Of a DNA stretch of 64,000 bases, positions 13,147 through 61,059 are shown in pieces. The first letter of the stretch is position 1, and each line of letters starts with the position of its first letter. The notes under the pieces are model-generated. The model was given only the letters and a program-made list of their open reading frames with translations. It ran no database searches and had not been told where the DNA came from. The position numbers were made by a program, and so were the translations under genes. Source of the DNA: a virus; IMG/VR virus record IMGVR_UViG_3300037851_000553, positions 1-64,000 of that record; one strand, written 5' to 3'.

Positions 13147-13968
13147 ATGAAAATTATTGGAATTTCTGGAAAAAAACAGGCTGGAAAAAATACAGCGGCG
13201 AACATTCTTCACGGCCTTGTTCTGACACGATACGGTTTGATTAAAGATTGGGCTGTTGGATATTCTGGAGAACTTCTTGTTCTTACTAATAATCGCGACG
13301 GAAAAATGGGGTGGGGCGAATTAGACGTATCACGCAAAGACAAAGAATTTATAGAATATGCGGAAGTTAACATGTGGCCTTTTGTAAAGCTATATAACTT
13401 TGCTGATACGCTTAAGTGGATGTGTACCGAACTGTTCGAAATTCCACACGAATGTATTTGGGGAACAGACGAACAAAAGAATCGCTTGATGCCTCATTTA
13501 CTTTGGGAAAATATGCCAGGAGTAACAACAGAAAAAACCCCACAAGACCCAGTAAATGAAGTTGTTGCTGGTCGGCTTGGAAAATATTACGAAAAGGTTC
13601 TAAGCGGTATTGTATATCACGAACCAGGACCAATGACCGCCCGACAGTTTATGCAATTTTTGGGCACAGAAATTGGACGCAAAATGTATGCTTCTATTTG
13701 GGTAAATGCCACCATCAAAAAAATCAAACGAGAACAGTCCGAACTTGCAATTATTGCAGACGTTCGTTTTCCAAACGAGGCTAAAGCTATTGAAGATGCT
13801 GATGGAATGCTACTAAGACTTACAAGAAACGTTTTTGATGACAAGCATGACAGTGAAACAAGTCTAGATAATTATTGTTTTCAACACGTTATAGATAATG
13901 ACAAATATAACATATTTACGTATGCTCACAAAATAACGCAATTTTATGACACACACATTGGAAAATAG
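13147..13968 (+). CDS. deoxynucleoside monophosphate kinase-like P-loop protein
   Basis: P-loop GISGKKQAGKNT and ADVRFPNEA, as in T4 gp1-like dNMP kinases (from memory). Carries a long central insertion. Confidence 0.65.
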   Translation: MKIIGISGKKQAGKNTAANILHGLVLTRYGLIKDWAVGYSGELLVLTNNRDGKMGWGELDVSRKDKEFIEYAEVNMWPFVKLYNFADTLKWMCTELFEIPHECIWGTDEQKNRLMPHLLWENMPGVTTEKTPQDPVNEVVAGRLGKYYEKVLSGIVYHEPGPMTARQFMQFLGTEIGRKMYASIWVNATIKKIKREQSELAIIADVRFPNEAKAIEDADGMLLRLTRNVFDDKHDSETSLDNYCFQHVIDNDKYNIFTYAHKITQFYDTHIGK

Positions 13969-15083: not shown

Positions 15084-16229
15084 ATGAGAAGCAGAAAGTT
15101 GGCCCTGGAAAGGGTAGAAGAACGGAATCTTATGGCAGGAGACGTATTTGTTAGCGATGGAACGCTATTTGTAGACGGTACGAACGGAAACGATTTCGTT
15201 CAAGTAGATCAAGTCGGGGGTACAAACACCGTAAGTGTTAACCTTAATGGCGAAAAATCTACATTTGATGGTGTTAGCAACATTTCAGTTACTGTTGGCA
15301 ATGGAGACGACAAAGTTTCAATCAATACTTTTGATGATCCAAACTTTTTGATTTCTTCAAGAGTTTTTGGTGGAAATGGTGACGATGTTCTACAAGGTGG
15401 TGGCGGAAGCGACTATCTTAACGGTGGCAACGGTGACGATATTGTTTCAAACTTTGTCACAGATGAAAATTATGCTCCGGTTGGCCGTGGTAGCAAAGAC
15501 GTTCTCATTGGAGGCAATGGTGACGACTCTTTGTGGGGCGGTTGGGGTCTACAAGATACAATCTTGGGTGGCCGTGGTAACGACACCATCTACGATATTG
15601 TTGGTGGAACAAATTTGATTGACGGAGAAGATGGCGATGATTTCATCATTGCTCGCGACGGTGCTGGTTTGCCAACAGACCCCCTAAATAATCCTGGGGG
15701 ATTGGTTTCTGACAATGTAGTTTTAAACAAGAGAGATTCTAGTGTTGTATTGTTTGATGCCGCAACACAAGCTGGTGGTCAACCGGTGTTGATTGGCAAT
15801 ACTCTATATGTTTTGAATCTTGACGGTGGAGACATTGCTGTAAATCAAGTCGGCAACAAGGTTGTTGTAACCTATGACGGTCAAGATTTTTCGTTTGACG
15901 CAGACGGTATCACGGCTGTTGCCGGTATCGGCGGTGCCACAAATGATTCGTTCGTAAACAACACAAACATCAAGTCTGTATTTTATGGGCAGGGTGGAAG
16001 CGATGTTTTGTTGGGCGGCTCGAATGATGACGTTTTGAAGGGCGGAAACGGCGATGACTACCTAGACGGTCGCGATGGAAAGGATGACATTACCGGTGAT
16101 GCTGGTTCGGATCTTCTTGTAGCTGCTGATGGCCTGAGCGATATCGTTCGCGTTGATGATTTGGACAGATTTTTTGTAGATTTGTCTTTGGATCGACTTG
16201 TGGTTAAGAGAAATTTGGCTTTTAGCTGA
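15084..16229 (+). CDS. RTX / hemolysin-type calcium-binding repeat protein
   Basis: Many GGxGxD units, for example GGNGDDVLQGGGGSDYLNGGNGDDIV, GGNGDDSLWGG, GGRGNDTIYD and GGSNDDVLKGGNGDDYLDGRDGKDDITGDAGSD. N-terminus is RKLALERVEERNLMAG. Confidence 0.85.
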   Translation: MRSRKLALERVEERNLMAGDVFVSDGTLFVDGTNGNDFVQVDQVGGTNTVSVNLNGEKSTFDGVSNISVTVGNGDDKVSINTFDDPNFLISSRVFGGNGDDVLQGGGGSDYLNGGNGDDIVSNFVTDENYAPVGRGSKDVLIGGNGDDSLWGGWGLQDTILGGRGNDTIYDIVGGTNLIDGEDGDDFIIARDGAGLPTDPLNNPGGLVSDNVVLNKRDSSVVLFDAATQAGGQPVLIGNTLYVLNLDGGDIAVNQVGNKVVVTYDGQDFSFDADGITAVAGIGGATNDSFVNNTNIKSVFYGQGGSDVLLGGSNDDVLKGGNGDDYLDGRDGKDDITGDAGSDLLVAADGLSDIVRVDDLDRFFVDLSLDRLVVKRNLAFS

Positions 16230-16248
16230 AATTACACCAAGCAAGTTT

Positions 16249-16275
16249 GCCGGTTCTTGTTAAAAACCGGCTTTT
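16249..16275 (+). terminator. rho-independent terminator
   Basis: GCCGGTT / AACCGGC stem followed by TTTT (16272-16275). Confidence 0.65.
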
Positions 16276-16299
16276 AATTCTACTTCTAGAGAGGCTACA

Positions 16300-16608
16300 A
16301 TGAGAAATTTATTGTTTGTTACTTTTTTGCTTTGTGCCATTTTATTTTCACAAGACGCGTTTGCTCAACAACGTCAAAATAATAACCAAAACAAGTTTAG
16401 GCCGTGGGTATTTAATTATCCCGCCGTTTATTATCAACCTCAAATTGTTTGGCTGCCACGGGGTCTTAGTTTGGATGTATACAACCCCCGCGTTTATACC
16501 TATCGCGGCCAAAGATACATTCAGTTTGGCATAAATTCTGGGTTTTACAACATTCCAAGGGTTGATACTTTCAATTTTTATAACGGTGAATACAGAAGGG
16601 GACGATAA
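16300..16608 (+). CDS. small secreted protein (signal peptide)
   Basis: MRNLLFVTFLLCAILFSQDAFA-QQ looks like a Sec signal with an AxA cleavage site. The mature part is rich in Y, N, R and Q. Confidence 0.5.
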   Translation: MRNLLFVTFLLCAILFSQDAFAQQRQNNNQNKFRPWVFNYPAVYYQPQIVWLPRGLSLDVYNPRVYTYRGQRYIQFGINSGFYNIPRVDTFNFYNGEYRRGR

Positions 16609-17102
16609 TGCCAATTCCATCAAGAAGAAGTGATGAGAAACCAAAGGATTTCATGTCTAGGTGCATGGGCGATCCAGTAATGAACAAGGAATACCCAGAT
16701 CAATCGCAAAGATCCGCCGTCTGCACGAGCAAGGCTTGTGAGGGCTTAACACACATTGAAAGCATGGATTTTCAGATAAAAGCTCCTGACTCTTACGAAG
16801 AGGGTCAAATGCAAAGAGAGCAATTAAACAAAATGCACGATCAGCTTATGGAAATAGTTGAATATATGGAGGGTGTTGTTTTTCAAGACTGGACAAAAGA
16901 CATGATTTCCAAGGCTGAAATTTATATTCAAAATATATACGACTTTGTAGAAGCAAACAGTCTAGAAGAATCAGAAGAAGAAGAATCTGAGGGTAAAAAG
17001 GGGTTTAAGTATAAAGACCCAATTACAAACGAAATCTTTCAATTTGACAGAAAGGGGCTTTATAAGAAAAACGGAAGAACACTTGTCCCGTTCGAAGATT
17101 AA
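16608..17102 (+). CDS. hypothetical acidic protein
   Basis: 164 aa. N-terminal DFMSRCMGDPVMNKEYPDQSQRSAVC motif. Acidic run EESEEEESE. Confidence 0.5.
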   Translation: MPIPSRRSDEKPKDFMSRCMGDPVMNKEYPDQSQRSAVCTSKACEGLTHIESMDFQIKAPDSYEEGQMQREQLNKMHDQLMEIVEYMEGVVFQDWTKDMISKAEIYIQNIYDFVEANSLEESEEEESEGKKGFKYKDPITNEIFQFDRKGLYKKNGRTLVPFED

Positions 17103-17111
17103 AATCTAATT

Positions 17112-18935
17112 ATGATAGACAAAATAGACTTTTCAAGATGCCGTTGTGAAAATGCTGGGTGGTGTAACTTATTTAAAAAAGAAATGCCGTCAAACCCTCC
17201 AAGTTGGCAATGGTGTCAGTCTATAACGCCATCACAGCGTGAAGAATATTATAAAAAGAATGTTATACAATCTTCTATGAAAAATATTAAAGACATGATT
17301 AGCAAAGTTGATATTGTTCAATTTTATGATAAGTTGCCAGAAATTCAAAGCGATTATGCTGTTTGTGTGATTCCAGCAAACCAAGACGCTGTTTCGTTAT
17401 TAGACGTAACAAGAGACAGTATTATCAGATATGCAAAAAAGTGTGGTGCTGATTATATAGAGTTGTCAGGAAATCAACACCCAGACTGGGTTATGGCAAA
17501 CAAGTACAGAGCTCATCAAGTATCTTCAAGATATAAAAAAACACTATATGTAGATTGTGATGTTGCTATAAAAGATGAAACACCAAATATCTTTCAGATT
17601 ACACCAGACGACAAAATATCGGCGTGTTCTGATTTTACAAGATTCAAAAAGTGGTCTGACACAGAATGGATAAGGAACGAACAAGAGTTAATTGTTCACA
17701 AAGTATTAAATTCTAATCATAAAAATATTAAAAATGGAAAATTCGAAGCAACGGAAATGCTTAATGGCGGATTTTTAGTAATACCGCAATCTTTAGCTGA
17801 TTATTATAAACAGCCATCAAAGCCATATCCTAGACAATGGTGTTTTGATCAAAATTATTTAACACTTACGCTTCCAGACGACAAACTGAATCTTTTATCT
17901 TTAAAATTTAATAACACAACCGTTGCGTCTACTAAATCTAAAGACACAATCATATGCTCAGAATTTTGGGAAGAATTAGACGAGTGTTACATTGTTCATG
18001 CAAATGGTATAAAAAATAACGAAATCAGAAAAGATATTTTAATAAGTTTTTTTGACGGTTCAATAAGAACAAAACAATCAACCGTAAAAACAAACACTCA
18101 GAACAATACGGACAAACCAAAAACAATACAACATAACCCATCCTGGGTTCTTGTTGTTGAACCAGAAGAACCGGTTATTGTGCCACAAAAAGATACGGCT
18201 GTTATCATGCTTGCGGCTGGTCCTTCTGGTAGAGAAATGGCACAATTTACAGGGCCAGCAGCTAAAAGATATGCCGAAAAAATTGGATCTGATTTTGTTA
18301 TGATAGGTGGCGAGGTTGCAAATCTAAAATTTCCATGCGGAGATAAGTTTAGGATACGTCATTATGCTAAATATTATCGTAGATCAATTTATATTGACGC
18401 TGATGTTTTTATAAGAAAAAACGCACCAAATCTCTTTGAAATCGTTCCAGAAGGAACGGTTGGTATGACAGACACATTTTTTACACACATAAAGCCATAC
18501 AAAAAACACCCAAATCCAAATTTTGACGTTATAAGAGACTGGGTTATTCCAGAAGTTTCTGAAATTATGTTGTCGCAGGGTGAAGAACCAACGCCTTCAC
18601 AAATCAAAAAACACTGGAATAGTGGGCTGATTGTTCTTGACCCTGATCTTGCTCAAAAATATTTTGAGCCCATGAAACGCCCATGTCCTCCGTTTTGGTG
18701 TTCAGAAGAGCATTGGTGCCGTAGAAATATTGATGTTCACGAATTAATTATAAGCGAAATTCCCACGAGTATACACTGGGGTTGGTGGTGGGATCAAGAT
18801 TTTAAAGAATTTGAACAAAGCAACGCAAGTTTTTTGCATTTGGCTGGAATGGGCCACAACGTTCCTTGGTGGGCAGCAACAGATATGGAGTGGAGAGTAA
18901 GAATTCTAAGAATACTAGGAACACTAGACAAATGA
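17112..18935 (+). CDS. two-domain GT8-like (GT-A) glycosyltransferase with N-terminal Cys4 module
   Basis: Two GT-A-like halves, each with a DxD (LYVDCDVAI and IYIDADVFI). N-terminal CRCENAGWC...WQWC. The N-terminal half is a paralog of 19558-21396. Confidence 0.65.
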   Translation: MIDKIDFSRCRCENAGWCNLFKKEMPSNPPSWQWCQSITPSQREEYYKKNVIQSSMKNIKDMISKVDIVQFYDKLPEIQSDYAVCVIPANQDAVSLLDVTRDSIIRYAKKCGADYIELSGNQHPDWVMANKYRAHQVSSRYKKTLYVDCDVAIKDETPNIFQITPDDKISACSDFTRFKKWSDTEWIRNEQELIVHKVLNSNHKNIKNGKFEATEMLNGGFLVIPQSLADYYKQPSKPYPRQWCFDQNYLTLTLPDDKLNLLSLKFNNTTVASTKSKDTIICSEFWEELDECYIVHANGIKNNEIRKDILISFFDGSIRTKQSTVKTNTQNNTDKPKTIQHNPSWVLVVEPEEPVIVPQKDTAVIMLAAGPSGREMAQFTGPAAKRYAEKIGSDFVMIGGEVANLKFPCGDKFRIRHYAKYYRRSIYIDADVFIRKNAPNLFEIVPEGTVGMTDTFFTHIKPYKKHPNPNFDVIRDWVIPEVSEIMLSQGEEPTPSQIKKHWNSGLIVLDPDLAQKYFEPMKRPCPPFWCSEEHWCRRNIDVHELIISEIPTSIHWGWWWDQDFKEFEQSNASFLHLAGMGHNVPWWAATDMEWRVRILRILGTLDK

Positions 18936-19546
18936 ACAAAAATATAGTTATATGCACATCACCCAGGTCTGGAAGTCAATGGTTGTCTGAATGTATTCGT
19001 CTTGGGGGGCTTGGTAAATGTGCAGAATGGATGGCAGAAGATATTGTCAACGGAAGAAAACACCCAACGCTTAACTTTCCGCTGGTTCTTCACGGATGGC
19101 TTGCGGCCAGAGCTTCTAAATACATAAATTGGAACAATGTTACAGTTGTTTACTTAAGACGGTTGGACATTGACGCACAAGCCGTTAGCTGGTTTCGTGC
19201 TATAATTGGTAAACGGTGGAACAGTGATTTTCCAGAGGACTCTTTATCGTTCGAACACTACAATTTTCATAGAATCATGGAACTCCGTTCGTCTATCTTG
19301 GAATATAGATCTGTGTGGCAATTGTTGTTCAAAAAACACAACATAAAACCAATAAAAGTTTCATACGAAAGACTTGCTGGTAACTGGTTTGAAATGGTCA
19401 ACCTAATCGAAAGACTTGGAGGAAAAATTGATCCCAATGGGCCAAGTCCACACCAAAAAATTCAACGCGACAACTTAAACAGAAAGTGGTTGGAACGGTT
19501 TAGACAAGAAGTAAAAGCCGGTTATCGTATTGAAATTCCTGTATAG
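18932..19546 (+). CDS. Stf0-type sulfotransferase
   Basis: VICTSPRSGSQWLSE (5'-PSB loop) and VYLRRLDIDAQAVSWFRA (3'-PB region). ATGA overlap with the upstream stop. Confidence 0.75.
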   Translation: MNKNIVICTSPRSGSQWLSECIRLGGLGKCAEWMAEDIVNGRKHPTLNFPLVLHGWLAARASKYINWNNVTVVYLRRLDIDAQAVSWFRAIIGKRWNSDFPEDSLSFEHYNFHRIMELRSSILEYRSVWQLLFKKHNIKPIKVSYERLAGNWFEMVNLIERLGGKIDPNGPSPHQKIQRDNLNRKWLERFRQEVKAGYRIEIPV

Positions 19547-19557
19547 GATTATACAAA

Positions 19558-21396
19558 TTGTCTCAAATAGATTTTTCAAAGTGCAACTGCGAAAATTCTG
19601 GGTGGTGTAAAACGTTTGACAAGGAAATGCCATCAAACCCCCCAAATTGGCAGTGGTGTCAATCTGCCACAGCAGAAGAGCGTGAAAATTTTTACAAAAA
19701 AAACCCAACAAAATTTTTACAAAGGATAAATAAAGCTGTTGAACCGGTTGAATTTTACGACGAATTACCAGAGATTAAAAGCGATTATGCCGCTTGTGTT
19801 ATTCCGGCAACAAGCGATGCTGCTGAACTGTTAGAAATAACCAGAGATGCTATTATAAAGTATGCAAAAAAATGTGGTGCAGACTACATTGAGTTGACCG
19901 GTAATCAAAATGAAAATTGGCCAATGTCCAATAAATATAGAGTTGAACAGGTTGCAAAAGTTTATAAAAAAACCCTGTATTTAGATTGTGATATTGTTGT
20001 TCGTCATGACTCTCCAAACATTTTTATAACTACGCCTGACGACAAAATATCAGCCTATGATGAGTGGGAGATTTGGGAGTCTAGAAAAGACACAGAGTGG
20101 ATAATCGAAGAACAAAAAATAATATCCAACAAGATGCTTGGTGGGGGTGGGAGCTCATTTGTTACAAATAAAATGCTCAACGGTGGAATCTTGGTGATAC
20201 CACAACGTATGGCACACTATTACAAACAACCAACCAGTGTATATCCTAAACAGTGGTGTTTTGATCAAAATTATTTAACACTTACGTTACCAGAAGATAA
20301 ACTTAATAGATTAAGCTACAAGTTCAACTGTGAATATGCAGACCAAAACTTTTATTCTAAACAAAAAGAATCTTATTTTGTTCATATAAATAATATTAAA
20401 AGATCTGATTCAGAAAAAAGAATAGATTTATTAAAAAAAATAAGTAATTATGTAGAGAATATTGATTCTGATCTGTGGATTCATGAAGATATATCTACTT
20501 CTAAAAAGTATCATAGTTGTAGTTTTGCTATAAAGAGACAGAAAAATGAAAACATTAAACTTAAAAAATACATCATCGAACAACAAGAAACTAAATACAC
20601 AGCAAATGATGTTTCCATTTTGTGTCTTGGGCATAAAAAAGAGCAATTTGATTCTATCAAACCCAGGCCATATCTGAAAAATATTAACTTAAATACTATT
20701 GATGCTGGCGAATTTTCTGGAAACGAGTGGGCAGAAGCAAGGGTGTTTTTGTCTAAAAATAATTTATTTGATTCGGACGCAAAATTTTACGGAATGGTTA
20801 CAGCCTCTTGGAACATGAAGTATTATTCTCAGTGTAGAATTGATGATTTTCATAATTGGTTTTCTGCTAAAGTGTTATTGAATTCTAAACCAGAAGATAG
20901 GGTTGTTCTTTGTGCCGACATGTATTGTTGGTGCAACTGGTTAAATGATAAAACTTGTTATAACAACAATAGAGTGATAAACTCGATTATGGACAAGGAC
21001 TACTATGATAATAAGTTAATATTGAGAAATTTTTTACGACTTATAAACTTTAATAGGAAGATACATAAACGTGTTCCGTTTTCAAACCAAATTATTTGTC
21101 ATAAACACTTGTTTCAGGATCTGGTAAACGAAATAAAAGAAAAAGATATAGCAGGAAAAATAAAATGGTTTATAAAAAAACACAACATAGTTAAGCACTT
21201 GTCTTATCCAGAGGGTCACTTTAAAAATATTCTAAATTATTCGTTAACAAGAGTGGAAGCATATTTTTTTGAAGTTTATACAATTGCGTGGTTCACCACA
21301 AACGATTGTAAAATTATAAGCAACACGACCAGATTAGAAAACTGGTATAGTTATCAAAGTATGACAAAAAGAATTATAAAAAATAAAAGTGAATAA
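19558..21396 (+). CDS. GT8-like glycosyltransferase with an unknown C-terminal domain
   Basis: TTG start. The first ~290 aa are a paralog of 17112-18935 (CNCENSGWC...WQWC, LYLDCDIVV, QWCFDQNYLTLTLP). The C-terminal ~300 aa are unrecognised. Confidence 0.65.
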   Translation: MSQIDFSKCNCENSGWCKTFDKEMPSNPPNWQWCQSATAEERENFYKKNPTKFLQRINKAVEPVEFYDELPEIKSDYAACVIPATSDAAELLEITRDAIIKYAKKCGADYIELTGNQNENWPMSNKYRVEQVAKVYKKTLYLDCDIVVRHDSPNIFITTPDDKISAYDEWEIWESRKDTEWIIEEQKIISNKMLGGGGSSFVTNKMLNGGILVIPQRMAHYYKQPTSVYPKQWCFDQNYLTLTLPEDKLNRLSYKFNCEYADQNFYSKQKESYFVHINNIKRSDSEKRIDLLKKISNYVENIDSDLWIHEDISTSKKYHSCSFAIKRQKNENIKLKKYIIEQQETKYTANDVSILCLGHKKEQFDSIKPRPYLKNINLNTIDAGEFSGNEWAEARVFLSKNNLFDSDAKFYGMVTASWNMKYYSQCRIDDFHNWFSAKVLLNSKPEDRVVLCADMYCWCNWLNDKTCYNNNRVINSIMDKDYYDNKLILRNFLRLINFNRKIHKRVPFSNQIICHKHLFQDLVNEIKEKDIAGKIKWFIKKHNIVKHLSYPEGHFKNILNYSLTRVEAYFFEVYTIAWFTTNDCKIISNTTRLENWYSYQSMTKRIIKNKSE

Positions 21397-22492
21397 ATTA
21401 GACTATATAATTGTTGGTGCTGGTTTGTCTGGTGCTACGTTTGCTAGATATGCAACCGATAGGGGTAAAAAATGCTTGGTTTTAGATAAAAGAAAGCATA
21501 TAGCTGGAAATATTTTTAGCCAAAACGTTGACGGCATCGAAGTTCACAAGTATGGACCCCACATTTTTCACACCAACTCTGAAAAAATTTGGAACTACGT
21601 AAATCAGTTTGCCGCTTTCAATGATTACAGACACAAGGTGCTGGTGAATTGTGGAGATGAGTTTTTCTCATTTCCAATCAATTTAAAAACACTAGAATCT
21701 TTGTGGGGTATCAAGGATGATGCAGAATTGATTAAAAAATTTGAAAACGGCAAGTCCAAACATAAACCCAAAGAAAATCTAGAAGATTGGGCTATAGCAG
21801 AGGTTGGTGAAGAAATCTATCGTAAGTTGATTTATGGATATACAAAAAAACAATGGGGTGTTTCACCGGCAAAATTACCACCATCAATAATAAGCAGAAT
21901 ACCGGTTAGACAAAACCGTAATGATGATTATCATAATTGCAAATTTTCTGGTATTCCGTTGTGCGGATACACAGATATGGTTGCGAATATGCTTTTTGGA
22001 ATAGAAGTTCAACTAGAAACAGATTATTTTCAAAAACGGTATTATTGGGATTCTATAGCAAAGAATATTATCTATACCGGGCCAATTGATGAATTCTTCG
22101 ATTACAAATACGGAGAAATGAAGTGGCGTTCTTTAAGATTTCAAGAACAAAGAATAAACCAGACGCTTGTTCAGCAAGTGGCACAAATAAATTTTGTACA
22201 AGAAAACGTTCCGTTTACCAGAAGCGTTGAGCACAAACACTTTATACCGTCTACACTTTTGGATAAAAAGTATACCATTATAACCAAAGAATATCCAGAA
22301 AAATATGTTCCTGGTTTAGAAAAATATTACCCGGTATGTAGCTGTTCTCAGGAAAATCTTCTGGCGAAGTATAAAAAACTTATACCTAGTAAATTTATTT
22401 TTATTGGTAGATTGGCCAAGTTTAAATATTACAACATGGATCAAGCGATTGCTTTGTCTCTATCTAAGGCTAGACTTGTAGTTGGAAACTAA
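21389..22492 (+). CDS. glf: UDP-galactopyranose mutase
   Basis: YIIVGAGLSGATFA, HKYGPHIFHT, YTKKQWG, IIYTGPIDEFFDY, SVEHKHF, GRLAKFKYYNMDQ. Collinear with E. coli Glf as I recall it. GTG start. Confidence 0.93.
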   Translation: MNKLDYIIVGAGLSGATFARYATDRGKKCLVLDKRKHIAGNIFSQNVDGIEVHKYGPHIFHTNSEKIWNYVNQFAAFNDYRHKVLVNCGDEFFSFPINLKTLESLWGIKDDAELIKKFENGKSKHKPKENLEDWAIAEVGEEIYRKLIYGYTKKQWGVSPAKLPPSIISRIPVRQNRNDDYHNCKFSGIPLCGYTDMVANMLFGIEVQLETDYFQKRYYWDSIAKNIIYTGPIDEFFDYKYGEMKWRSLRFQEQRINQTLVQQVAQINFVQENVPFTRSVEHKHFIPSTLLDKKYTIITKEYPEKYVPGLEKYYPVCSCSQENLLAKYKKLIPSKFIFIGRLAKFKYYNMDQAIALSLSKARLVVGN

Positions 22493-22516
22493 TTTTACAA
22501 AAACCTGAAAATCCTA

Positions 22517-22545
22517 TTGACTTAACACCGGCTTTAGACTATCAT
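22517..22545 (+). promoter_or_regulatory. sigma70-type promoter
   Basis: TTGACT, 17 nt spacer, TATCAT. The spacer ends in TTTAGAC. Confidence 0.45.
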
Positions 22546-22622
22546 ATGGTGGTCGGAAACCGTGTCGTGGAACCAAGAACATTAAGAAGCCAAAATATTA
22601 TTCTTGTCGAGAGATAGCCTAT

Positions 22623-23168
22623 TTGCATACGCTACCAAGAAATGGCGTTGGTGCAGAACTTGGTGTTTGTAAGGGCGAAAACGCTGTTAACCTATTGCAC
22701 TATAGTAGAGCCAAAAAACTCTACTTGGTAGACCCCTGGGACAACAAAGAACCGCTTGGAGAAGAGGGAAACCCAAATCATATCACAGCACCAGAATATT
22801 TTTTGTTTGAAAAATATGGAAGAAATTATCAAACTTTGGTACAAAAGATATTCAAAGACGAAGTTGAGTCTGGTAAAGTTGTAACTATTCGTAGCTACGC
22901 AAAGCCATGGCTAGATAGTTGCAACATATTGTTTGACTGGATTTACATAGACACTACACACACGTTTGACGAGACCTTCGAAACGGTTGAGAGCAGCGTT
23001 AATGTCCTAAAAAAGGGCGGGGTACTTGGGATTCACGATTATGAGACTGGGTTTCCTTGCGGATGGGACACAATGACCCCGGTTATGTATTTTATGGGAA
23101 CATTTTTATATCCGGTAGCCTGGGCTGGCGTTGATCGCGGCATAACACTATTTTGTAAAAAAATATAG
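22623..23168 (+). CDS. class I SAM-dependent methyltransferase
   Basis: AELGVCKGENAV, LYLVDPW, IYIDTTHTFDET, GIHDY. Paralog of 32293-32922. TTG start is uncertain because the frame is open from 22521 with no ATG. Confidence 0.6.
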   Translation: MHTLPRNGVGAELGVCKGENAVNLLHYSRAKKLYLVDPWDNKEPLGEEGNPNHITAPEYFLFEKYGRNYQTLVQKIFKDEVESGKVVTIRSYAKPWLDSCNILFDWIYIDTTHTFDETFETVESSVNVLKKGGVLGIHDYETGFPCGWDTMTPVMYFMGTFLYPVAWAGVDRGITLFCKKI

Positions 23169-23176
23169 GACAAAAA

Positions 23177-24805
23177 ATGAAGTGGTTTCCTCTCTGTAAT
23201 TATACACACTATTCTTTACAAATTGGCTTTTCCAAACCAAAGCAATTAGCCAAGAAATGCTCTGAAAATTCTTATCCAGCGTGCGGAATCGCTGATTACA
23301 AAAGCATTTCCGGTGCCGTTTCTTTTTATCAAGCTTGTCTGGAAAACAACATCAAGCCAATTATTGGTTGTTCGTTTGATGGGTTTTCTCTTTTTGCAAA
23401 AAATAAGAAGGGTTGGCTTGAATTAATTCGTATAGCATCTACCATAGACGCCGATGGAAACGTCGATAAACCAATGCTAATAAAACTAGCAAACAACGGC
23501 AACATGATTTGCGTTGCAGAAAACGAATTTTTATCTCCTATAACAGGAAGCGACTTTTACGTAAAAAGCGAAGCGTTTCCAAACACGTATTATGTGGAAA
23601 AAGAACAAGCAGAACTCCATAGAATTTTGTTGTGCTCTGGTATGAAAACAACTTTACCAGATATAAACAAACAGCTAGGAAACAGAAAGAGTGTAGACAA
23701 TCAGATTTTCTTTGAGAGCAATGATTTTTATCTTAAAAATCGCATGGAGATATCAAAGATGCTGACAGACGATCCAAAAATGGAAGTCTTTGAGGAAATT
23801 TTTAATAAGATTGAGAATTATAACATTTTAAATAAGCCTATGTTGCCAAATTTTCCAACACCAAACGGGGTCACAGAGCGTGATTATCTAGAAAAACTCT
23901 GCAACGCCGGGTGGAATAGAATGGTAAAAAACGGTGAAATAACAGACCAAAATAAAGACGAATACCACAGACGCTACAAGCACGAATTTGAAGTTATTGA
24001 AAATGCAAATCTTTTTGGTTATTTCTTGATCGTGTGGGACATTTTGAACTATTGTAGAACCAACGGCTGGATGGTTGGTCCTGGCCGTGGAAGTTCTGCT
24101 GGCTGTTTGATTTCCTATTTGATTGGCATTACTTTAATTGATCCAATTAAATACGACCTATTGTTTGAGAGATTTTATAACCCTGGTCGCAACACAGAAG
24201 ATCATATATCGCTTCCCGATATTGATGTAGATGTTCCAACGGGAAAACGTGACCAAATTATCAATGAATTAAAAGACAAATATGGTCACGACAATGTTAG
24301 TCAAATGTGTACGTTTGGCCGTTTGCAGGGTCGTAGTGCCATAAAAGAAGTGCTACGTGTAAATAACGCTTGTGGTTTTGGTGAAATGAACGAAATAACT
24401 AAATATATCCCAGACGAAGCTGCTATTTCGGATCAATTGGCTGAAATGGACGAAGAAGATCGTAGCATAATTCGTTGGGCACTATTGAACCACGCAGACG
24501 ATTTGCGTGATTATTGTTATATTGACCAAGAAGGTAATTTGCGTGGAGACTATTCAGAATTTTTTGAACAAGCCATTCAAATTGAAGGGACGTTTAAGAC
24601 TCAGGGCAAACACGCTGCCGGTGTCGTTATCTCAAAAGAGCCTCTGTATCTAGTGTGCCCAATGGTCAATCAAAAACATGGTACAGAAAAAATTGCAGGA
24701 TTAGAAATGGCAGACCTTGAGGCTTTGGGTCATGTTAAGTTTGATGTATTGGGGATAAATCTCCTTGATAAATTGATGTATATCGAGGATTTACTAGCAA
24801 AATGA
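23177..24805 (+). CDS. dnaE: DNA polymerase III alpha subunit, N-terminal fragment (PHP-like plus palm)
   Basis: GPGRGSSAGCLISYLIGIT, PDIDVDV, GKHAAGVVIS, VKFDVLGI. Ends at the point equivalent to just after E. coli KFDFLGL. Confidence 0.92.
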   Translation: MKWFPLCNYTHYSLQIGFSKPKQLAKKCSENSYPACGIADYKSISGAVSFYQACLENNIKPIIGCSFDGFSLFAKNKKGWLELIRIASTIDADGNVDKPMLIKLANNGNMICVAENEFLSPITGSDFYVKSEAFPNTYYVEKEQAELHRILLCSGMKTTLPDINKQLGNRKSVDNQIFFESNDFYLKNRMEISKMLTDDPKMEVFEEIFNKIENYNILNKPMLPNFPTPNGVTERDYLEKLCNAGWNRMVKNGEITDQNKDEYHRRYKHEFEVIENANLFGYFLIVWDILNYCRTNGWMVGPGRGSSAGCLISYLIGITLIDPIKYDLLFERFYNPGRNTEDHISLPDIDVDVPTGKRDQIINELKDKYGHDNVSQMCTFGRLQGRSAIKEVLRVNNACGFGEMNEITKYIPDEAAISDQLAEMDEEDRSIIRWALLNHADDLRDYCYIDQEGNLRGDYSEFFEQAIQIEGTFKTQGKHAAGVVISKEPLYLVCPMVNQKHGTEKIAGLEMADLEALGHVKFDVLGINLLDKLMYIEDLLAK

Positions 24806-24846
24806 GTATAATGGTATGTCAACCTTAACTTTTACGGAGTCATACC

Positions 24847-25521
24847 ATGAACAAAAAAGAGCTAGAGACTTTGATCTACACTGAAAACAAAACTCAAAGA
24901 GAGGTAGCAAAAGAAAAGGGGGTGAGCGAGGCTTGTGTGTCAAAATGGATGAAAAGACACGGCATCGTCAAAACATCAGAAAGAAGATGGATTGGAAAAA
25001 CCTATGGATCGTTAACTGTTTTGAGCGTTTCTGGAAAAGACAAGTATTCCCACGCCATTTTAGACTGTGTATGTGAGTGTGGAACCAAAATATCTGTATT
25101 AAATCACAGCCTTACTAGCGGTAACACAAAAACGTGCGGTTGCAAATCTAGAAAACGAGGTAGTCAACACCCACATTTCAAAGGGTTCGAGAGGATTCAA
25201 GCTAGTCATTGGGGGCAATACATCTCTGGTGCGACCAAGAGAGGTCTAGATTTTGACATTACTATGGAATACGCCTGGGGGATTTACATTAACCAAAACC
25301 GTTTGTGTGCCTTATCGGGTCAGCCTATCTATTTTCCACGAACGAGAAAACAAAAAACACAATCCACAGCATCGTTGGACAGAATAGACAGCAGCAAAGG
25401 ATACATACCAGGGAATGTTCAATGGATTCATAAAGAGATCAACAGGATGAAATCAAGCCTGTCAGAAAAAGATTTTTTACAATTCATCAGGCAAATCGCT
25501 GAGTACAAGCAGCTTGTATGA
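24847..25521 (+). CDS. HNH homing endonuclease with N-terminal HTH
   Basis: TQREVAKEKGVSEACVSKWM (HTH), a Cys-rich CVCECG...CGC segment, and SLDRIDSSKGYIPGNVQWIHKEINRMK (HNH-type). Confidence 0.85.
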   Translation: MNKKELETLIYTENKTQREVAKEKGVSEACVSKWMKRHGIVKTSERRWIGKTYGSLTVLSVSGKDKYSHAILDCVCECGTKISVLNHSLTSGNTKTCGCKSRKRGSQHPHFKGFERIQASHWGQYISGATKRGLDFDITMEYAWGIYINQNRLCALSGQPIYFPRTRKQKTQSTASLDRIDSSKGYIPGNVQWIHKEINRMKSSLSEKDFLQFIRQIAEYKQLV

Positions 25522-25523
25522 GT

Positions 25524-25565
25524 TTGGACAAACTTATGTACATTGAGGAACTAATCAAACAATGA
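25524..25565 (+). pseudogene. displaced duplicate of the dnaE-N 3' end
   Basis: Encodes LDKLMYIEELIKQ*, compared with LDKLMYIEDLLAK* at 24764-24805. Its TGA overlaps the exonuclease ATG (ATGA). Confidence 0.6.
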
Positions 25566-26236
25566 ATAGGGATATTGTCGTTTTCGATTTTGAAACGGGT
25601 GGAAGAAACCCGCTTCGTTGTCAACCCACACAAATTGCTGCTATCGCATTAGACGGTAGAAACTTTACACCAAAGGGCGAGTTTAATAGCTTGATGCGTC
25701 CGATATTGGATGATGAAAAAGCTATCGCTCTTGGTCTTGATCCGGTTGAAGATGAAGCACTGAAAAAAACAAGAAAGACCAGGGATGAACTTGCCAAAGC
25801 ACCACTACCAAAAACCGTGTGGAAAAAATTCTCTTCTTTTGTAGAACGTTACAATTGGCAGGGTACACCATATTTTGCACCAATTCCGTGCGGATTTAAT
25901 ATAATAGGATTTGATATGCCCATTGTTAACCGTTTATGTAAAGAATATGGACCCTGGGATGAAAAAAGATCGTGTCATAAATTGTTTCACCAAATTTATA
26001 AAATTGATGTAATGGATGATATCTGGCTGTGGACAGAGGGTGATCCAAATGTAAAATCTATAAGCATGGATTCACTTAGAGAGAGGATGGGGCTTTCTAT
26101 GGAAAATGCTCACGATGCCTTGCAGGACGTTAAAGATATAGCGAACATCTTTATCAAGCTGCAAAAGTCAAGAAGAGCAATCTATCGTAATATGAAGTTT
26201 GACAAAGCGTTCGCAGACGGAAAACTATTTGTATAG
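25562..26236 (+). CDS. DnaQ-like DEDDh 3'-5' exonuclease
   Basis: Exo I FDFETGG, Exo II GFNIIGFDMPIV, Exo III HDALQDV. Confidence 0.85.
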   Translation: MNRDIVVFDFETGGRNPLRCQPTQIAAIALDGRNFTPKGEFNSLMRPILDDEKAIALGLDPVEDEALKKTRKTRDELAKAPLPKTVWKKFSSFVERYNWQGTPYFAPIPCGFNIIGFDMPIVNRLCKEYGPWDEKRSCHKLFHQIYKIDVMDDIWLWTEGDPNVKSISMDSLRERMGLSMENAHDALQDVKDIANIFIKLQKSRRAIYRNMKFDKAFADGKLFV

Positions 26237-26248
26237 GAGCTAATAACA

Positions 26249-26515
26249 ATGTGTAATTTGCTTAAGAAAGTAGAAAACAAAAACAAATACAAATCAGCCG
26301 ACCCATTTTATTATCATTTGAGGGATGGGGATGTTGATTATCTTTTTTCTGATTATCAACTAGAAGCAGCAAAGAATCGTGCTCTTAGCAATCCAGAAGA
26401 TGTTGCAGATTATGAAGAGCCACCAAATGATTTTTGGGTTGGATTTGGTTCTGGTGTGGTTGCTTGTAGTTTCCTTGTTGCTTTTATTTATATTCTTATT
26501 CGCCTGTTGAGTTAA
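26249..26515 (+). CDS. small tail-anchored membrane protein
   Basis: 88 aa. C-terminal TM VGFGSGVVACSFLVAFIYILIRLL. Confidence 0.45.
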   Translation: MCNLLKKVENKNKYKSADPFYYHLRDGDVDYLFSDYQLEAAKNRALSNPEDVADYEEPPNDFWVGFGSGVVACSFLVAFIYILIRLLS

Positions 26516-26516
26516 G

Positions 26517-28082
26517 ATGATTGATTTTAATGATAAGAAAACTTGGTCTCTATATTGGAACGGACTGACAAAGGGCGTTTTCCAACTGGAAAGCAATCTT
26601 GGTAGGTCTTGGTCAAAAAAATTAGCACCAGAGAACATTGAAGAACTGGCAGCACTTATCGCCTTGATCAGGCCGGGGTGTTTGAAGGCTATCATTGATG
26701 GAAAGTCAATGACACAAAGATTTATTGATCGTAAGCACAAAAGAGAGCCTATTACTTATATTCACGACTCTTTGGAAAGTATTCTAAAAACAACCTATGG
26801 AGTTCTTGTCTACCAAGAGCAGGCAATGAAAATTGCTGTCAAACTTGCTGGGTTTAATGAACAAGAGGCAGACAATCTTCGTAAAGCCATTGGCAAAAAG
26901 AAGGCCAAGCTGATGATTGAAATTCGCGAACAATTTATAAAGGGTTGTTTAAAGGTTGGAATAGTAGATGAAGATACGTCTAAAGAGATTTTTAGCTGGA
27001 TTGAAAAATCTTCAAGATACTCTTTCAACAAGTCTCATGCCGTGGCATATGCAGTAAACTCATACTGGTCTGCTTGGTATAAAGCAAATCACACAGAGGA
27101 ATTTTTTACATCATATTTATACCACTCCAATGAAAAACAAGACCCTCATGAAGAAATTTATGAATTAGTTTCTGAGGCAAAATTGTTTGATATACATGTA
27201 AAGATATCAAAATTGTCATCTTTTAGTGAAAAATTTAAAAACAATAAAGATGGAATCTGTTTTGGTATAAAAGATATTAAAGGTTTGGCCGGTGTAAATG
27301 GGGACAACGTAATTTTTGTCATTCAAGAAACATCCAATATAATTAAAAAGAACCCAAAAGATTTTACGTGGATGGACGTTTTGATTTTTCTTTCTCCAAA
27401 AATCAATTCAACGGCTTTCAAGTCTTTGGCTAGCGTTGGGTTTTTTTCAACTTTATCAACGGGTGTCAGCAGAAACAGGGCTTTGTATGAATATTTGATC
27501 TTTAAAGAATTGACAAAAACTGAACAATCTTGGATTTTAGATAATTACGAAAAAAAACAGTGGAACAGCCTATATGACTGTCTAACTTCTTTGGCACCGG
27601 TAAAGAAACTTGGCGGTGGAACAAGCAACCATAGTCGTAGTCAAATAGTTTCAAATGAAGCAGAAATGGTGCTACATCCACCATATAAACTTTCAGACGA
27701 TCCATCTTGGATAGTCGAAATGGAAAAAAAGTTTTTGGGTTGTCCGGTCTCGTTGTCAAAGATTGATGCCGTTGACACATCTGTTGCGAACACTACTTGC
27801 AAAGACGTTTTAAATGGAAAACGTGGAAAAGACATATGTATAGTAGCAAGCGTAACAAGGGTTGCAAATCATAAGATAAAGAAAAAGGGAAGCAAACAGT
27901 TTGGTAAATTAATGTCGTTTTTAACGATTGAAGATTCAACCTGTTCATTGGATAGCGTTGTTGTGTTTCCAGACGCAAGAGAAAAGTATCAATATATTTT
28001 ATATGAAGGAAATAATCTTATGCTTTGTGGAGAAGTAGAAAATGGAAATTCTTTTGTTGTTGACAAAATTCATGAAATTTAA
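26517..28082 (+). CDS. dnaE: DNA polymerase III alpha subunit, C-terminal fragment (fingers plus OB-like tail)
   Basis: VFQLES, ALIRPG, FIDRKH, VLVYQEQAM, LRKAIGKKK, YSFNKSHAVAYA. Collinear with E. coli DnaE from about the IPLDDKKSF region onward. Confidence 0.92.
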   Translation: MIDFNDKKTWSLYWNGLTKGVFQLESNLGRSWSKKLAPENIEELAALIALIRPGCLKAIIDGKSMTQRFIDRKHKREPITYIHDSLESILKTTYGVLVYQEQAMKIAVKLAGFNEQEADNLRKAIGKKKAKLMIEIREQFIKGCLKVGIVDEDTSKEIFSWIEKSSRYSFNKSHAVAYAVNSYWSAWYKANHTEEFFTSYLYHSNEKQDPHEEIYELVSEAKLFDIHVKISKLSSFSEKFKNNKDGICFGIKDIKGLAGVNGDNVIFVIQETSNIIKKNPKDFTWMDVLIFLSPKINSTAFKSLASVGFFSTLSTGVSRNRALYEYLIFKELTKTEQSWILDNYEKKQWNSLYDCLTSLAPVKKLGGGTSNHSRSQIVSNEAEMVLHPPYKLSDDPSWIVEMEKKFLGCPVSLSKIDAVDTSVANTTCKDVLNGKRGKDICIVASVTRVANHKIKKKGSKQFGKLMSFLTIEDSTCSLDSVVVFPDAREKYQYILYEGNNLMLCGEVENGNSFVVDKIHEI

Positions 28083-28111
28083 TTGGTATAAATTAGAATT
28101 TAGACTATTAT
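28083..28111 (+). promoter_or_regulatory. sigma70-type promoter ahead of the long glycan operon
   Basis: TTGGTA, 17 nt spacer, TATTAT. The spacer ends in TTTAGAC. Confidence 0.45.
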
Positions 28112-28146
28112 AAGTTATACTATCATTTCACAAATATGGAGGAATC

Positions 28147-28602
28147 ATGAGGTCTTTGAATTCGGAAAGAAAGGTTGTGGTAAAAAAGACAAGGCTTCTT
28201 AATGCATTAAGAAAAAATCTTGAGAAGCATATCAACGATTATTTAGAAGCTGTCGCGGGATATAAAGAAGAAGCAAAGGTAAAGCTAGAAGCTGAAAAAG
28301 AAAAGGCTATTGAAAAACTGTCGCGTGCTTATACAAAAACTCTTGGTGAGATTGATAACTTTGATCCTGAAAAATCAACAGACGTTATAGTTTTTTGCGA
28401 TTCGATCCGATTTGATTTGGTAGCCCCAAAGAATTTTTCTGATGCTTATCAACAGGCAATAGAAATGTTGGAGTGGGAAGAAAGAGACGAAGTAGAATTG
28501 ACGACCTATGAATTTCGATGTTTTGTTATGGATAAGTGGGATTGGATGGAAGATTTTATAAAGAGCAATTCTAGATATCTATTAAAGAACAAGGCTCTAT
28601 GA
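28147..28602 (+). CDS. hypothetical protein
   Basis: 151 aa, GGAGG RBS, coiled-coil-like N-terminal half. Confidence 0.45.
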   Translation: MRSLNSERKVVVKKTRLLNALRKNLEKHINDYLEAVAGYKEEAKVKLEAEKEKAIEKLSRAYTKTLGEIDNFDPEKSTDVIVFCDSIRFDLVAPKNFSDAYQQAIEMLEWEERDEVELTTYEFRCFVMDKWDWMEDFIKSNSRYLLKNKAL

Positions 28603-28793
28603 TGGTCTGGCGTAAAGATGATCCGCCCTTTAATTTTGGTAAACCGCTAGAGTCTGTGCTTGAACGCAGACTGTATAGATTATCCATTCTAGAAAAAAAG
28701 CGGCCAGGAAAATTTACAGAACAATTACTGGAAGCAAGACAAAAATGGATTAAAGAATTTGAATATAATATAAATATTGATCTTGCTCTTTAA
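28599..28793 (+). CDS. hypothetical protein
   Basis: 64 aa, ATGA-coupled. Confidence 0.35.
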   Translation: MMVWRKDDPPFNFGKPLESVLERRLYRLSILEKKRPGKFTEQLLEARQKWIKEFEYNINIDLAL

Positions 28794-28826
28794 GATAAAG
28801 ATACTTATGGACAAAGAAGGGTAAAA

Positions 28827-30515
28827 ATGAGGCGTAAGCGTGTACTTTTTTGTAGTGAAGCTACATTTTTAAATACTGGATACGCGACGTATACCAGAGA
28901 AATTTTAAATCAACTACATAACACTGGAAAATATGAAATAGCTGAAATGGGTGCCTACGGTCAGAGAAACGACCCAAGGGCGGTTGAAATCCCATGGAAA
29001 TATTATGGTGTTGCACCAAACACAGAGTGTGAGCCAAAGGCAACAGAACAAGAGCTACAGGCTTATAATTCTTCTGGGACAAACCAATTTGGTGAATGGA
29101 TTTTTGAGCATGTTTGCTTGGATTTTTTGCCAGACATTGTTTGTGATATTCGCGATTTTTGGATGCTTGACTTTGCAGAAAGATCCCCATATAGAAATTA
29201 CTTTAGGTGGGCTATAATGCCAACGGTTGACGCACGACCACAAGCAAGACAATGGATTGCTACATATGCTAGTGCAGACGCTGTTTTGACCTATTCTGAT
29301 TGGGCTGGCGGTGTTTTGTCTGATCAATCTGGTGGTAAGATAAAGTATTGGGGAAGTTCTCCACCCTCTGCACACCACGCGTATAGACCAGTTCCAGACA
29401 AGCGAGCACACAAGCTACAATATGGAATAAATCCAGATTACAAAATAATCGGAACGGTTATGCGTAATCAAAGACGAAAATTGTATCCAGATTTGTTCGA
29501 AGCGTTTAGGAAATTTTTAGACAAAGCAAAGAGCAAACAGTATTATCTATATTGTCACACTTCATACCCAGATCTTGGTTGGGATATTCCAGAACTTATC
29601 TTGCAATACGACCTTGCAGCACACGTACTGTTTACATATATTTGTCCAGAAACAAAGAAACCATTTCCTTCACTGTTTAAGGGGGCCGTTGCTCAATCGC
29701 CCTTTACGGGGCGTTGGGGGTCTACTCTTTCGAATGTGAAGAACGGGGTGTCATATGAGAATTTATCAAATATTATAAATTTGTTTGATCTTTATGCTCA
29801 ATATGCAAACTGTGAAGGTTTTGGGCTTCCACAGGTTGAAGCCGCTGCCTGTGGAGTACCCGTTTGTGGTACAGATTATTCTGCTATGGAAAGCGTGCTT
29901 CGTCAGCTTGGGGGTCATCCAATTAGACCAGCCGCTCTTTACAAAGAACTTGAAACGGGGTGTTTTCGTGCTGTACCAAACAACGAAGAAGCCGCACGCC
30001 ATTTTTTGAAATTCTTCGAAGAAACAAGCGAAGAAGGTAGAAAAGCAATTGGTTTACAAACAAGAAAAAATTTTGAGAAATATTTTAGATGGGACATGAG
30101 TGCCGGAAAGTGGGCTGCTATTTTTGATAGCTTTGAAGAAATTCCAATCGAAAGAACGTGGGCGTCTCCACCGAAAATTCATCAACCATCACCGCCACTG
30201 ACAAAAGAACAGGTGAACGGTTCTGATCCAACGCAGTTGGCAAGATGGTTGATAGTAGAAGTTCTTGGAGACGTTTCAAAATTGAATACTTTTTTTGAAT
30301 CAAGGCTTGCTAGAGACTTAACATATCGTTCTTCGACTAGCTCTACAGGTGGAATGTATTTCAACGAATCTTCTGCTGCTTTTGAGGGTATTAATTTTCG
30401 TTTACACTTCGATTTTGACATTGCTTACAATCAACTAAAGGCCCAGTGTGAAAGAAGAAACGCTTGGGAACAGCGTCGTGTACAGGTAATGCAAGAAAGG
30501 AGACTGCTACGATGA
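28827..30515 (+). CDS. GT4-like (GT-B) glycosyltransferase
   Basis: CEGFGLPQVEAAACGVPVCGTDYSAMESV (E-x7-E region). Confidence 0.8.
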   Translation: MRRKRVLFCSEATFLNTGYATYTREILNQLHNTGKYEIAEMGAYGQRNDPRAVEIPWKYYGVAPNTECEPKATEQELQAYNSSGTNQFGEWIFEHVCLDFLPDIVCDIRDFWMLDFAERSPYRNYFRWAIMPTVDARPQARQWIATYASADAVLTYSDWAGGVLSDQSGGKIKYWGSSPPSAHHAYRPVPDKRAHKLQYGINPDYKIIGTVMRNQRRKLYPDLFEAFRKFLDKAKSKQYYLYCHTSYPDLGWDIPELILQYDLAAHVLFTYICPETKKPFPSLFKGAVAQSPFTGRWGSTLSNVKNGVSYENLSNIINLFDLYAQYANCEGFGLPQVEAAACGVPVCGTDYSAMESVLRQLGGHPIRPAALYKELETGCFRAVPNNEEAARHFLKFFEETSEEGRKAIGLQTRKNFEKYFRWDMSAGKWAAIFDSFEEIPIERTWASPPKIHQPSPPLTKEQVNGSDPTQLARWLIVEVLGDVSKLNTFFESRLARDLTYRSSTSSTGGMYFNESSAAFEGINFRLHFDFDIAYNQLKAQCERRNAWEQRRVQVMQERRLLR

Positions 30516-55920: not shown

Positions 55921-55926
55921 ATCCTA

Positions 55927-61056: not shown

Positions 61057-61059
61057 ATT

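Follow-up and report, generated by a model that had tools for sequence, protein, structure and literature searches.

Replicative DNA polymerases encoded in two pieces are known from several systems, against which we compare here the alpha subunit of a DnaE-type DNA polymerase III (Pol III) from a virus. In a 64,000-nucleotide stretch of viral DNA (positions 1 to 64,000 of the IMG/VR record IMGVR_UViG_3300037851_000553; hereafter the window), this subunit is encoded as two genes, dnaE-N and dnaE-C, and the gene of a DEDDh 3'-5' exonuclease, the presumed proofreader, lies between them. The arrangement had been pointed out in an original prediction made from the letters of the window, and its claims are taken up below together with the results that bear on them.

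The cyanobacterial dnaE-n/dnaE-c pair and the metagenomic 'fractured genes', in which adjacent gene pieces have another gene between them (Dassa et al. 2009, PMC2677866), likewise produce a DnaE-type alpha from two genes. The split-intein DnaE is, however, trans-spliced to one chain and broken in the later fingers or post-fingers region, whereas the window has no intein fragments and no +1 nucleophile, and is broken after the palm. Furthermore, fractured genes enclose a homing endonuclease, whereas the window encloses what is presumably the polymerase's own proofreader. In T4-related phages, a replicative enzyme is reassembled non-covalently from two intein-less polypeptides, as would be the case for the window polymerase. 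Thus, gp43A and gp43B of the Aeromonas phages 25 and 44RR co-purify and are active (PMC2988022), and nrdA of Aeh1 is split by mobE, homing endonuclease genes occurring at the junction in some T4-related members (PMC2988022; PMC3045599). These splits concern a family B polymerase or a ribonucleotide reductase, are found in few phages and have an endonuclease gene or an untranslated spacer between the pieces, whereas the window polymerase belongs to family C, its split is the mark of a very large clade, and the gene kept between its pieces would encode a functional partner subunit.

Split C-family enzymes have also been reported in phages. In the group 2.2 jumbo phages, a minimal Pol III alpha is predicted to work as two proteins (Iyer et al. 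2021, PMC7824862). That module is devoid of PHP and other domains, is encoded by distant genes, is cut between the NTP-binding and the Mg/DNA-binding subdomains and is accompanied by a family B polymerase. In contrast, the window enzyme extends from the PHP domain to a possible OB domain and is cut after the palm, its pieces are close (parted only by the exonuclease gene in the minimal form), and there is no family B polymerase in the 64-kb window. In the Microbacterium cluster EF phage AnnaSerena, DnaE is encoded by two adjacent genes, gp56 and gp57 (PMC7302621), of 345 and 767 aa with nothing between them; judged by length, the cut lies further upstream than in the window, at about the PHP/palm boundary. 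In the Alicyclobacillus phage MMB025 (735 and 286 aa), it is the fingers that are cut, and an endonuclease gene separates the two pieces. Neither of these two phages has a proofreader between the halves, and their proteins are at most about 36% identical to the window protein.

PolC of the Firmicutes has an exonuclease domain inserted inside its PHP domain, within the same chain, so that a DEDDh module is likewise embedded in the linear order of a C-family polymerase. The window does not have the PolC architecture, its exonuclease being a separate open reading frame (ORF) between palm and fingers that leaves the PHP domain uninterrupted, and we found no evidence of a common origin of the two. 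The echo of PolC holds solely as an analogy, which is how it had been put forward. The E. coli Pol III core combines an inactive PHP domain with a separate DEDDh exonuclease, as does the window's subclade, but it has a one-chain alpha and a dnaQ gene without linkage to dnaE, whereas the window has two chains with the exonuclease gene between them. Two reports describe E. coli epsilon as tethered by its C-terminal tail (PMC3664792, PMC2528190). As for viruses, surveys of replicases depict those of the C family as single-chain enzymes resembling that of E. coli (PMC3201878, PMC4889955). An intein-free post-palm cut with a nested proofreader gene was not found in the full-text literature that was searched, whose coverage leaves out most subscription journals. 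This break site with its nested gene appears to be undescribed, though split polymerases as such are known, and the split C-family precedents (PMC7824862, PMC2677866, PMC7302621) somewhat lower its novelty.

A Pol III alpha subunit encoded as two genes

The window encodes a real DnaE-type Pol III alpha as two genes, as judged from the following lines of evidence. First, in a PHROGs search the full-length family phrog_405 was matched at positions 245-612 by dnaE-N and at 626-1055 by dnaE-C; as these ranges are contiguous, the halves make up one polymerase from which only a short linker is missing. Second, dnaE-N matches the Pfam family DNA_pol3_alpha over its full profile (1-260; E 3.5e-69) and the PHP family PF02811 (E 6.5e-14; profile positions 6-100 of 164 only), and aligns to residues 238-566 of 2HNH, while dnaE-C matches DNA_pol3_finger (PF17657; E 1.3e-46) and aligns to residues 589-842 of E. 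coli alpha. The pair thus has what is expected of the C family, namely a palm with three carboxylates, a fingers domain (here on a separate chain) and an N-terminal PHP domain. Third, in a structure-sequence alignment D348, D350 and D523 of dnaE-N correspond to D401, D403 and D555 of E. coli, in agreement with the equivalences that the original prediction had given for the aspartates of PDIDVD and KFDVLG, and all three are invariant across 15 diverse N halves. Fourth, the VFQLES, RPG, DRKH, YQEQ and FNKSH motifs announced for the second half are all present in dnaE-C, and none of the motifs FQ, RPG, YQEQ, RKAxGKKK and FN varies among 19 homologues (FQLES and FNKSH in the window). The active site is therefore divided over two polypeptides, as had been proposed, with the catalytic aspartates on the N half and the fingers motifs that bind the template and the incoming deoxynucleoside triphosphate (dNTP) on the C half. 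The 'OB-like tail' of dnaE-C fared less well in the window protein, where the OB region (970-1055) is a weak second phmmer stretch with an i-Evalue of 1.7, but it is clear in relatives, since PF01336 (OB) is matched by P0243, P0277 and the C piece of L170, along with HHH_6. No tau-binding extension occurs in dnaE-C.

The break was checked against the DnaE structure by means of the 2HNH alignment, which confirmed the residue equivalences. In E. coli alpha (2HNH, 5FKU), residue 534 of dnaE-N corresponds to 566 and residue 2 of dnaE-C to 589. As dnaE-N stops 8 residues past residue 534, its last aligned position, the alignment places the cut in the loop equivalent to about E. coli 575-588, just past the first helix that follows the KFDxLG aspartate. 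It is also where the first ORF had been said to end. Instead of the single polypeptide usual for a DnaE-type alpha, there is a stop codon (24803-24805) and then a separate ATG at 26517, from which dnaE-C restarts, as predicted, with MIDF at the DnaE-homologous position.

All five ORFs of the region 23177-28082 were confirmed at their positions (Table 1); they lie on the plus strand and are tightly packed, with spacers of 41, 40, 12 and 1 nt. The two halves are 1.7 kb apart in the window and down to about 0.7 kb apart in relatives.

Table 1. Features of the dnaE-N to dnaE-C region, in positions of the window
Feature	Position	Strand	Basis
dnaE-N (PHP, palm, thumb, first helix after KFDVLG; 542 aa)	23177..24805	+	Pfam, 2HNH alignment
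Free-standing HNH endonuclease gene (224 aa)	24847..25521	+	PHROG endonuclease/HNH families
Insertion scar, 15-codon mini-ORF	25518..25565	+	Sequence reading
DEDDh (DnaQ/epsilon-like) 3'-5' exonuclease gene (224 aa)	25562..26236	+	Pfam RNase_T, phrog_192
Small ORF (88 aa) with hydrophobic C-terminal segment	26249..26515	+	No family match
dnaE-C (fingers and C-terminal region; 521 aa, own ATG)	26517..28082	+	Pfam DNA_pol3_finger

That the two halves are re-joined unseen, through a divergent split intein, an intron, trans-splicing or ribosomal bypass, is extremely improbable, even though inteins are common in the DnaE genes of this clade (P0181, P0263, P0279, P0374) and a true split-intein 'fractured' dnaE occurs in the sister lineage L170. 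The N half ends 8 residues past the DnaE homology and the C half starts at the homologous residue, whereas intein fragments need 30-100 aa; together, the N tail and the C head cover every linker residue of the unsplit relatives, which leaves no room for such fragments. Pfam detected no Hint/intein domain in either half, and because dnaE-C starts with M-I-D there is no Cys, Ser or Thr splicing nucleophile, so that the claimed lack of intein blocks at both junctions is borne out. The same applies to the argument that there is too little non-coding DNA for an intron: no intron family, whether group I or II, was found by Rfam in 22500-28800 (E up to 1), and conserved ORFs occupy the interval, leaving gaps of at most 41 nt between them, the DNA between the halves being a conserved protein-coding gene. 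Two other Rfam matches in the same region (a 5.8S rRNA and a snoRNA) were rejected as chance-level. In the relatives, the inteins, some with LAGLIDADG, are found in the four genes named above and in other N halves of about 1000 aa, but not in the window, and their sites vary, lying either in the N half (PHP, palm) or in the C half (fingers). The polymerase of this clade is a hotspot for selfish elements.

Conservation and history of the break

The split is not a one-off. It is real, conserved and abundant, it does not stem from an assembly error, and it marks a very large clade of uncultured viruses. In a collection of 5.8 billion proteins, the best 120 homologues of the N half are all 537-563 aa long and the best 120 homologues of the C half about 516-564 aa, save for one intein-bearing (707 aa) and two truncated proteins; the assemblies behind them stem from ENA, JGI, Logan, NCBI and Tara, with contigs of up to 173 kb. 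An exhaustive search of 1.84 billion cluster representatives showed the N half to end at the same position in 141 of the 150 nearest 50%-identity clusters (37-65% identity). The survey for the same split that the original prediction had asked for found it to recur throughout the clade, the order dnaE-N, exonuclease, dnaE-C occurring in 129 of the 130 distinct viral loci with all three genes. The clade is abundant in IMG/VR, where at least 573 pattern matches were confirmed (573/600 among the matches listed). Frameshift-split genes are frequent in metagenome assemblies; an assembly or sequencing artefact, or a decaying pseudogene, is nevertheless a negligible explanation here, as hundreds of assemblies made independently, from the five sources named above, share this break, and the halves and the exonuclease hold their length and all catalytic motifs down to about 40% identity.

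The pairwise divergences of the N half, the exonuclease and the C half over 98 loci are correlated with r = 0.93-0.94, a value that was reached in none of 300 permutations of a Mantel test. This co-divergence indicates that the three genes are inherited and constrained as a unit. In a distant subclade (P0245-type), identity to the window falls to about 40% for the N half, 33% for the exonuclease and 42% for the C half, with the same gene order; its N halves are of about 620 aa with a canonical PHP motif. Indeed, PHP motif I reads HxH...D in the P0245-type relatives and in M. tuberculosis DnaE1 versus CNY...QIG in the window, whose PHP domain is shortened; in the window's subclade, this motif has lost its histidine and aspartate metal ligands. 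Loci of the distant subclade (L192-L271; 7878-8066 in L200) also carry a conserved ORF of about 62 aa between dnaE-N and the exonuclease gene, for which no family match was found and which could be a fourth component, perhaps theta-like. In another relative, P0338 (762 aa), the N half runs to the usual break and is then fused to a circularly permuted YpsA/SLOG domain.

The commonest and minimal form of the locus has the exonuclease gene alone between the pieces, and the HNH gene is absent from most loci. Thus, of the three genes said to lie between the halves, all of which are present in the window, only that of the exonuclease is conserved, the HNH gene and the membrane ORF being sporadic. 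The HNH gene (phrog_3322 at 1.6e-24, phrog_374 at 4e-20) has homologues at the dnaE-N/exonuclease junction only in the window, L018, L034, L037, L053 and L058, with a remnant in L188. Directly behind its stop codon lies the mini-ORF 25518-25565 (MSLDKLMYIEELIKQ, then a stop), a diverged copy of the dnaE-N 3' end that matches 24766-24805 at 28 of 41 nt and keeps the residues LDKLMYIE.L. The mini-ORF starts with an ATG that overlaps the HNH stop and ends with a stop codon that runs into the exonuclease ATG; in HNH-free relatives such as L004, the genuine dnaE-N stop has precisely this overlap with the exonuclease start. This scar implies that, when the HNH cassette inserted into the terminal codons of dnaE-N, the split and the coupling to the exonuclease gene were already in place. 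The duplicated N tail occurs only in the window; in the other HNH-bearing loci, the N tail diverges after LDKLMYI. The HNH gene is therefore secondary, a variable later insertion at this junction.

It is improbable that an HNH gene invaded an intact dnaE and split it, as mobE did in nrdA of Aeh1, the exonuclease gene being a passenger. Such an origin would fit the location of an HNH gene exactly where dnaE-N and the exonuclease gene meet, both in the window and in five or more further loci, the target-duplication-like scar of the window, and the endonuclease-split DnaE of Alicyclobacillus phage MMB025 and L170. However, most split loci are HNH-free and have dnaE-N overlapping the exonuclease start, the scar itself shows the HNH gene arriving in an arrangement already split and exonuclease-coupled, and the deeply divergent P0245-type subclade is split likewise with no HNH gene between the halves. 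As the HNH gene occurs in a minority of loci, the locus does not conform to the 'genes in pieces' in which the endonuclease is the separating element. The 88-aa ORF, at the other side of the exonuclease gene, has homologues (38-42% identity) only in L001-L003 and L018; profile searches found no family match for it, and its hydrophobic C-terminal stretch is read straight from the sequence. Both this small membrane ORF and the HNH gene are later selfish or accessory insertions at two gene junctions.

Turning to the unsplit relatives, 5 of the 150 nearest clusters are continuous through the break site. Full-length unsplit proteins are P0243 (1102 aa), P0277 (1151 aa) and P0374 (1396 aa, with an intein); P0350 is also continuous through the site, but shorter (801 aa). 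P0244 and L170 are continuous at the window's break site and broken further downstream by a split intein. L170 (6001-10687 of IMG/VR 3300042879_003909), which has Hint/Intein_splicing matches at residues 792-872 and a Vsr-like/NUMOD3 endonuclease gene between its pieces, is a true fractured gene of the Dassa et al. type in a sister lineage of the same viral clade. The genomes of the unsplit lineages share synteny, comprising a PDDEXK nuclease, dnaE, the single-stranded DNA-binding protein (SSB) and a glycosyltransferase of about 530-560 aa. They also own an exonuclease homologue, located directly upstream of dnaE (L272, L170), one gene upstream (L276) or about 2 kb downstream (L277). The exonuclease gene does lie between the halves in the window, but the word 'inserted' used for it needs amending, as the event was a rearrangement of an existing exonuclease/dnaE module and not the capture of a foreign gene.

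In a neighbour-joining tree (100 bootstraps, rooted with cellular DnaE), the viral clade was monophyletic in 100/100 replicates, whereas split monophyly and a basal position of the unsplit forms were each obtained in 0/100, the unsplit forms standing at three places with local support of 23-66%. An ancestral fission may have been undone by re-fusion in a few lineages; alternatively, the split allele may have originated, or been spread, repeatedly. The linkers of the unsplit forms displayed no 'Met fossil' or other fusion scar. A tandem duplication of exonuclease gene and dnaE, after which the first copy lost its C part and the second its N part, would yield the order N, exonuclease, C; no second exonuclease copy upstream of dnaE-N, as in an exonuclease, N, exonuclease, C intermediate, was seen in the fetched loci.

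A proposed three-chain polymerase core

The protein encoded between the halves matches RNase_T/DEDDh (PF00929; E 6.9e-11) and phrog_192, 'DNA polymerase exonuclease subunit' (7e-27), and the residues D9, E11, D118, H184 and D189 of its Exo I, II and III motifs (DxE, D, Hx4D) are invariant in 20 diverse homologues. From its linkage, its co-divergence and the phrog_192 label, it is presumed to be a proofreading subunit bound to the polymerase. Beyond the catalytic domain, its C-terminal tail KF[DE]KAFA[DN]G.[LY][YF]V is kept in both the split and the unsplit lineages. This tail is a candidate polymerase-docking peptide and would be comparable in role to the C-terminal segment of E. coli epsilon, to which no sequence similarity was detected.

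We think it likely that dnaE-N, the exonuclease gene and dnaE-C form a genuine, selectively maintained replicase module of a large clade of uncultured aquatic double-stranded DNA viruses, the halves, cut apart in a surface loop, assembling non-covalently. In this module, the N piece would bring the three metal-binding aspartates and the C piece the fingers residues for the incoming dNTP and the template, and the two would associate through the native palm/fingers interface into a complete alpha-like subunit; with an active site so divided, polymerase activity would require the association of the pieces. The DEDDh protein would act as an epsilon-like proofreader, probably docked by its conserved tail. 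As the PHP motif I ligands are gone in the window's subclade, proofreading would there come from this separate exonuclease, the sole proofreader, as in E. coli. Finally, the overlapping or near stop and start codons would couple translation, so that the three chains are made in equal amounts and side by side. In the minimal arrangement, the N stop and the exonuclease ATG overlap as ATGA, and about 10-20 nt separate the exonuclease stop from the ATG of the C half; the N stop overlaps the exonuclease start in 44 of the 130 loci, and the exonuclease stop overlaps the C-half start or lies within 30 nt of it in 90. The locus is most likely an operon whose coupled translation would supply a polymerase core of three non-covalently joined proteins, physical assembly, proofreading, tail docking and translational coupling being what we infer from the genes.

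Several points weigh against this proposal. In 61 loci, mostly of the distant subclade, a spacer of 146-222 nt with a small ORF separates the N half from the exonuclease gene, so that strict coupling is not universal, and larger insertions are present in 20 loci at the first junction and in 30 at the second. The counts from a promoter/terminator scan equal the shuffled expectation, which leaves gene spacing as the sole argument for an operon. Lastly, the exonuclease is only weakly similar to solved structures (best E 1e-4), and its epsilon-like assignment relies on motifs, PHROG label and genomic linkage.

The halves might instead have taken separate roles, the N half as a PHP/nucleotidyltransferase module and the C half as a DNA-binding factor, while another polymerase replicates the genome. 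In certain jumbo phages, a minimal split Pol III has been proposed to stand beside a family B enzyme (Iyer et al., PMC7824862), and the window covers 64 kb of a genome of about 173 kb. We regard this as very improbable for the following reasons. First, the catalytic carboxylates and the fingers motifs are all invariant, which is sensible only if they act jointly. Second, the divergences of N and C are correlated (r = 0.94), and the halves are always adjacent and on the same strand. Third, there is no other polymerase in the replication module of the window (DnaB, DnaG-type primase, RecA-like protein, ribonucleotide reductase), and no family B polymerase was seen in the 64 kb.

In a more far-reaching version of the non-covalent three-protein core, which we consider unlikely, the fission would be no neutral accident but a new design: an ancestor of the viral radiation turned a single-chain alpha into an obligate three-chain core, so that the fingers open or exchange independently and the proofreader is built in co-translationally. 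If so, the unsplit forms nested among the split ones would be natural re-fusions, and the clade would document what has rarely been recorded, the fission of an essential enzyme's gene and its reversal by fusion. A possible gain from the split is the tolerance of modified nucleotides. One report states that an engineered split of the fingers of Pfu polymerase improved the use of bulky nucleotide analogues (PMC3061061). A gene for a deoxynucleoside monophosphate (dNMP) kinase (DNMK) lies at 13147-13968 in the window and occurs also in L276 and L277, and QueF is directly upstream of dnaE-N in L007/L008 (5618-5968). The dNMP kinase and QueF hint at modified nucleotides in these genomes.

Genomic surroundings and implications

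Besides the polymerase, the window encodes DnaB, a DnaG-type primase, a RecA-like recombinase, subunits of ribonucleotide reductase, PhoH, the dNMP kinase and a PDDEXK nuclease. The polymerase module is flanked by large islands of glycan and sugar-nucleotide genes (15084-23168 and 28827 to about 50300), which encode glycosyltransferases of families GT1 and GT8, a sulfotransferase, an NTP-transferase, a methyltransferase and an epimerase-like protein, with an RTX-repeat protein at 15084-16229. Relatives have a hypervariable block ahead of dnaE-N (DUF1501, PAP2, sulfotransferase, GT29, QueF). A conserved 562-aa protein with a weak GT1 match (28827-30515) is always encoded shortly downstream of dnaE-C, from which SSB or a small ORF separates it; this protein gave zero tblastn matches in 50,697 phage records. 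On the minus strand, at 51820-63338, there are three very large ORFs (1366, 1709 and 574 aa) for which nothing was found in Pfam or PHROGs, and which may encode structural or fibre proteins. The window has no tRNA genes.

Among the same 50,697 cultured/GenBank phage records, the 7-kb region had no blastn match, and tblastn of the N half, the C half, the exonuclease, the helicase and the downstream glycosyltransferase yielded no close relative, with at best about 30% identity over most of the query and up to 37% on partial matches. The best exonuclease matches, in Bacteroides phage DAC19 and Virus Rctr197k, were set aside as they are not flanked by DnaE halves. The clade is also absent from 185,579 GTDB species genomes, in which only ordinary cellular DnaE (at most 33% identity) was found, so that the scan gave no lead to a host or a prophage. 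The dnaE-C proteins P0172 (MBG88426.1) and P0179 (MQF98124.1) are annotated in NCBI as 'hypothetical protein' in Verrucomicrobiales and SAR202 metagenome-assembled genomes (MAGs), but their contigs are probably viral and mis-binned into bacterial genomes. More generally, annotation pipelines label the halves 'DNA polymerase III alpha' or 'hypothetical protein', and some contigs are binned into bacterial MAGs.

If the halves work together as proposed, the Pol III alpha fold would be compatible with a naturally occurring cut, free of inteins, between the catalytic metal site and the nucleotide-binding fingers. The module would offer a natural template for the engineering of split C-family polymerases and a tractable system for the co-translational assembly of operon-encoded subunits. 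It would also provide a case of gene fission around the gene of a partner, with the split, unsplit and split-intein states represented in related genomes. In a very abundant group of environmental viruses, the two-chain form of the replicative polymerase would then be the rule and not the exception.

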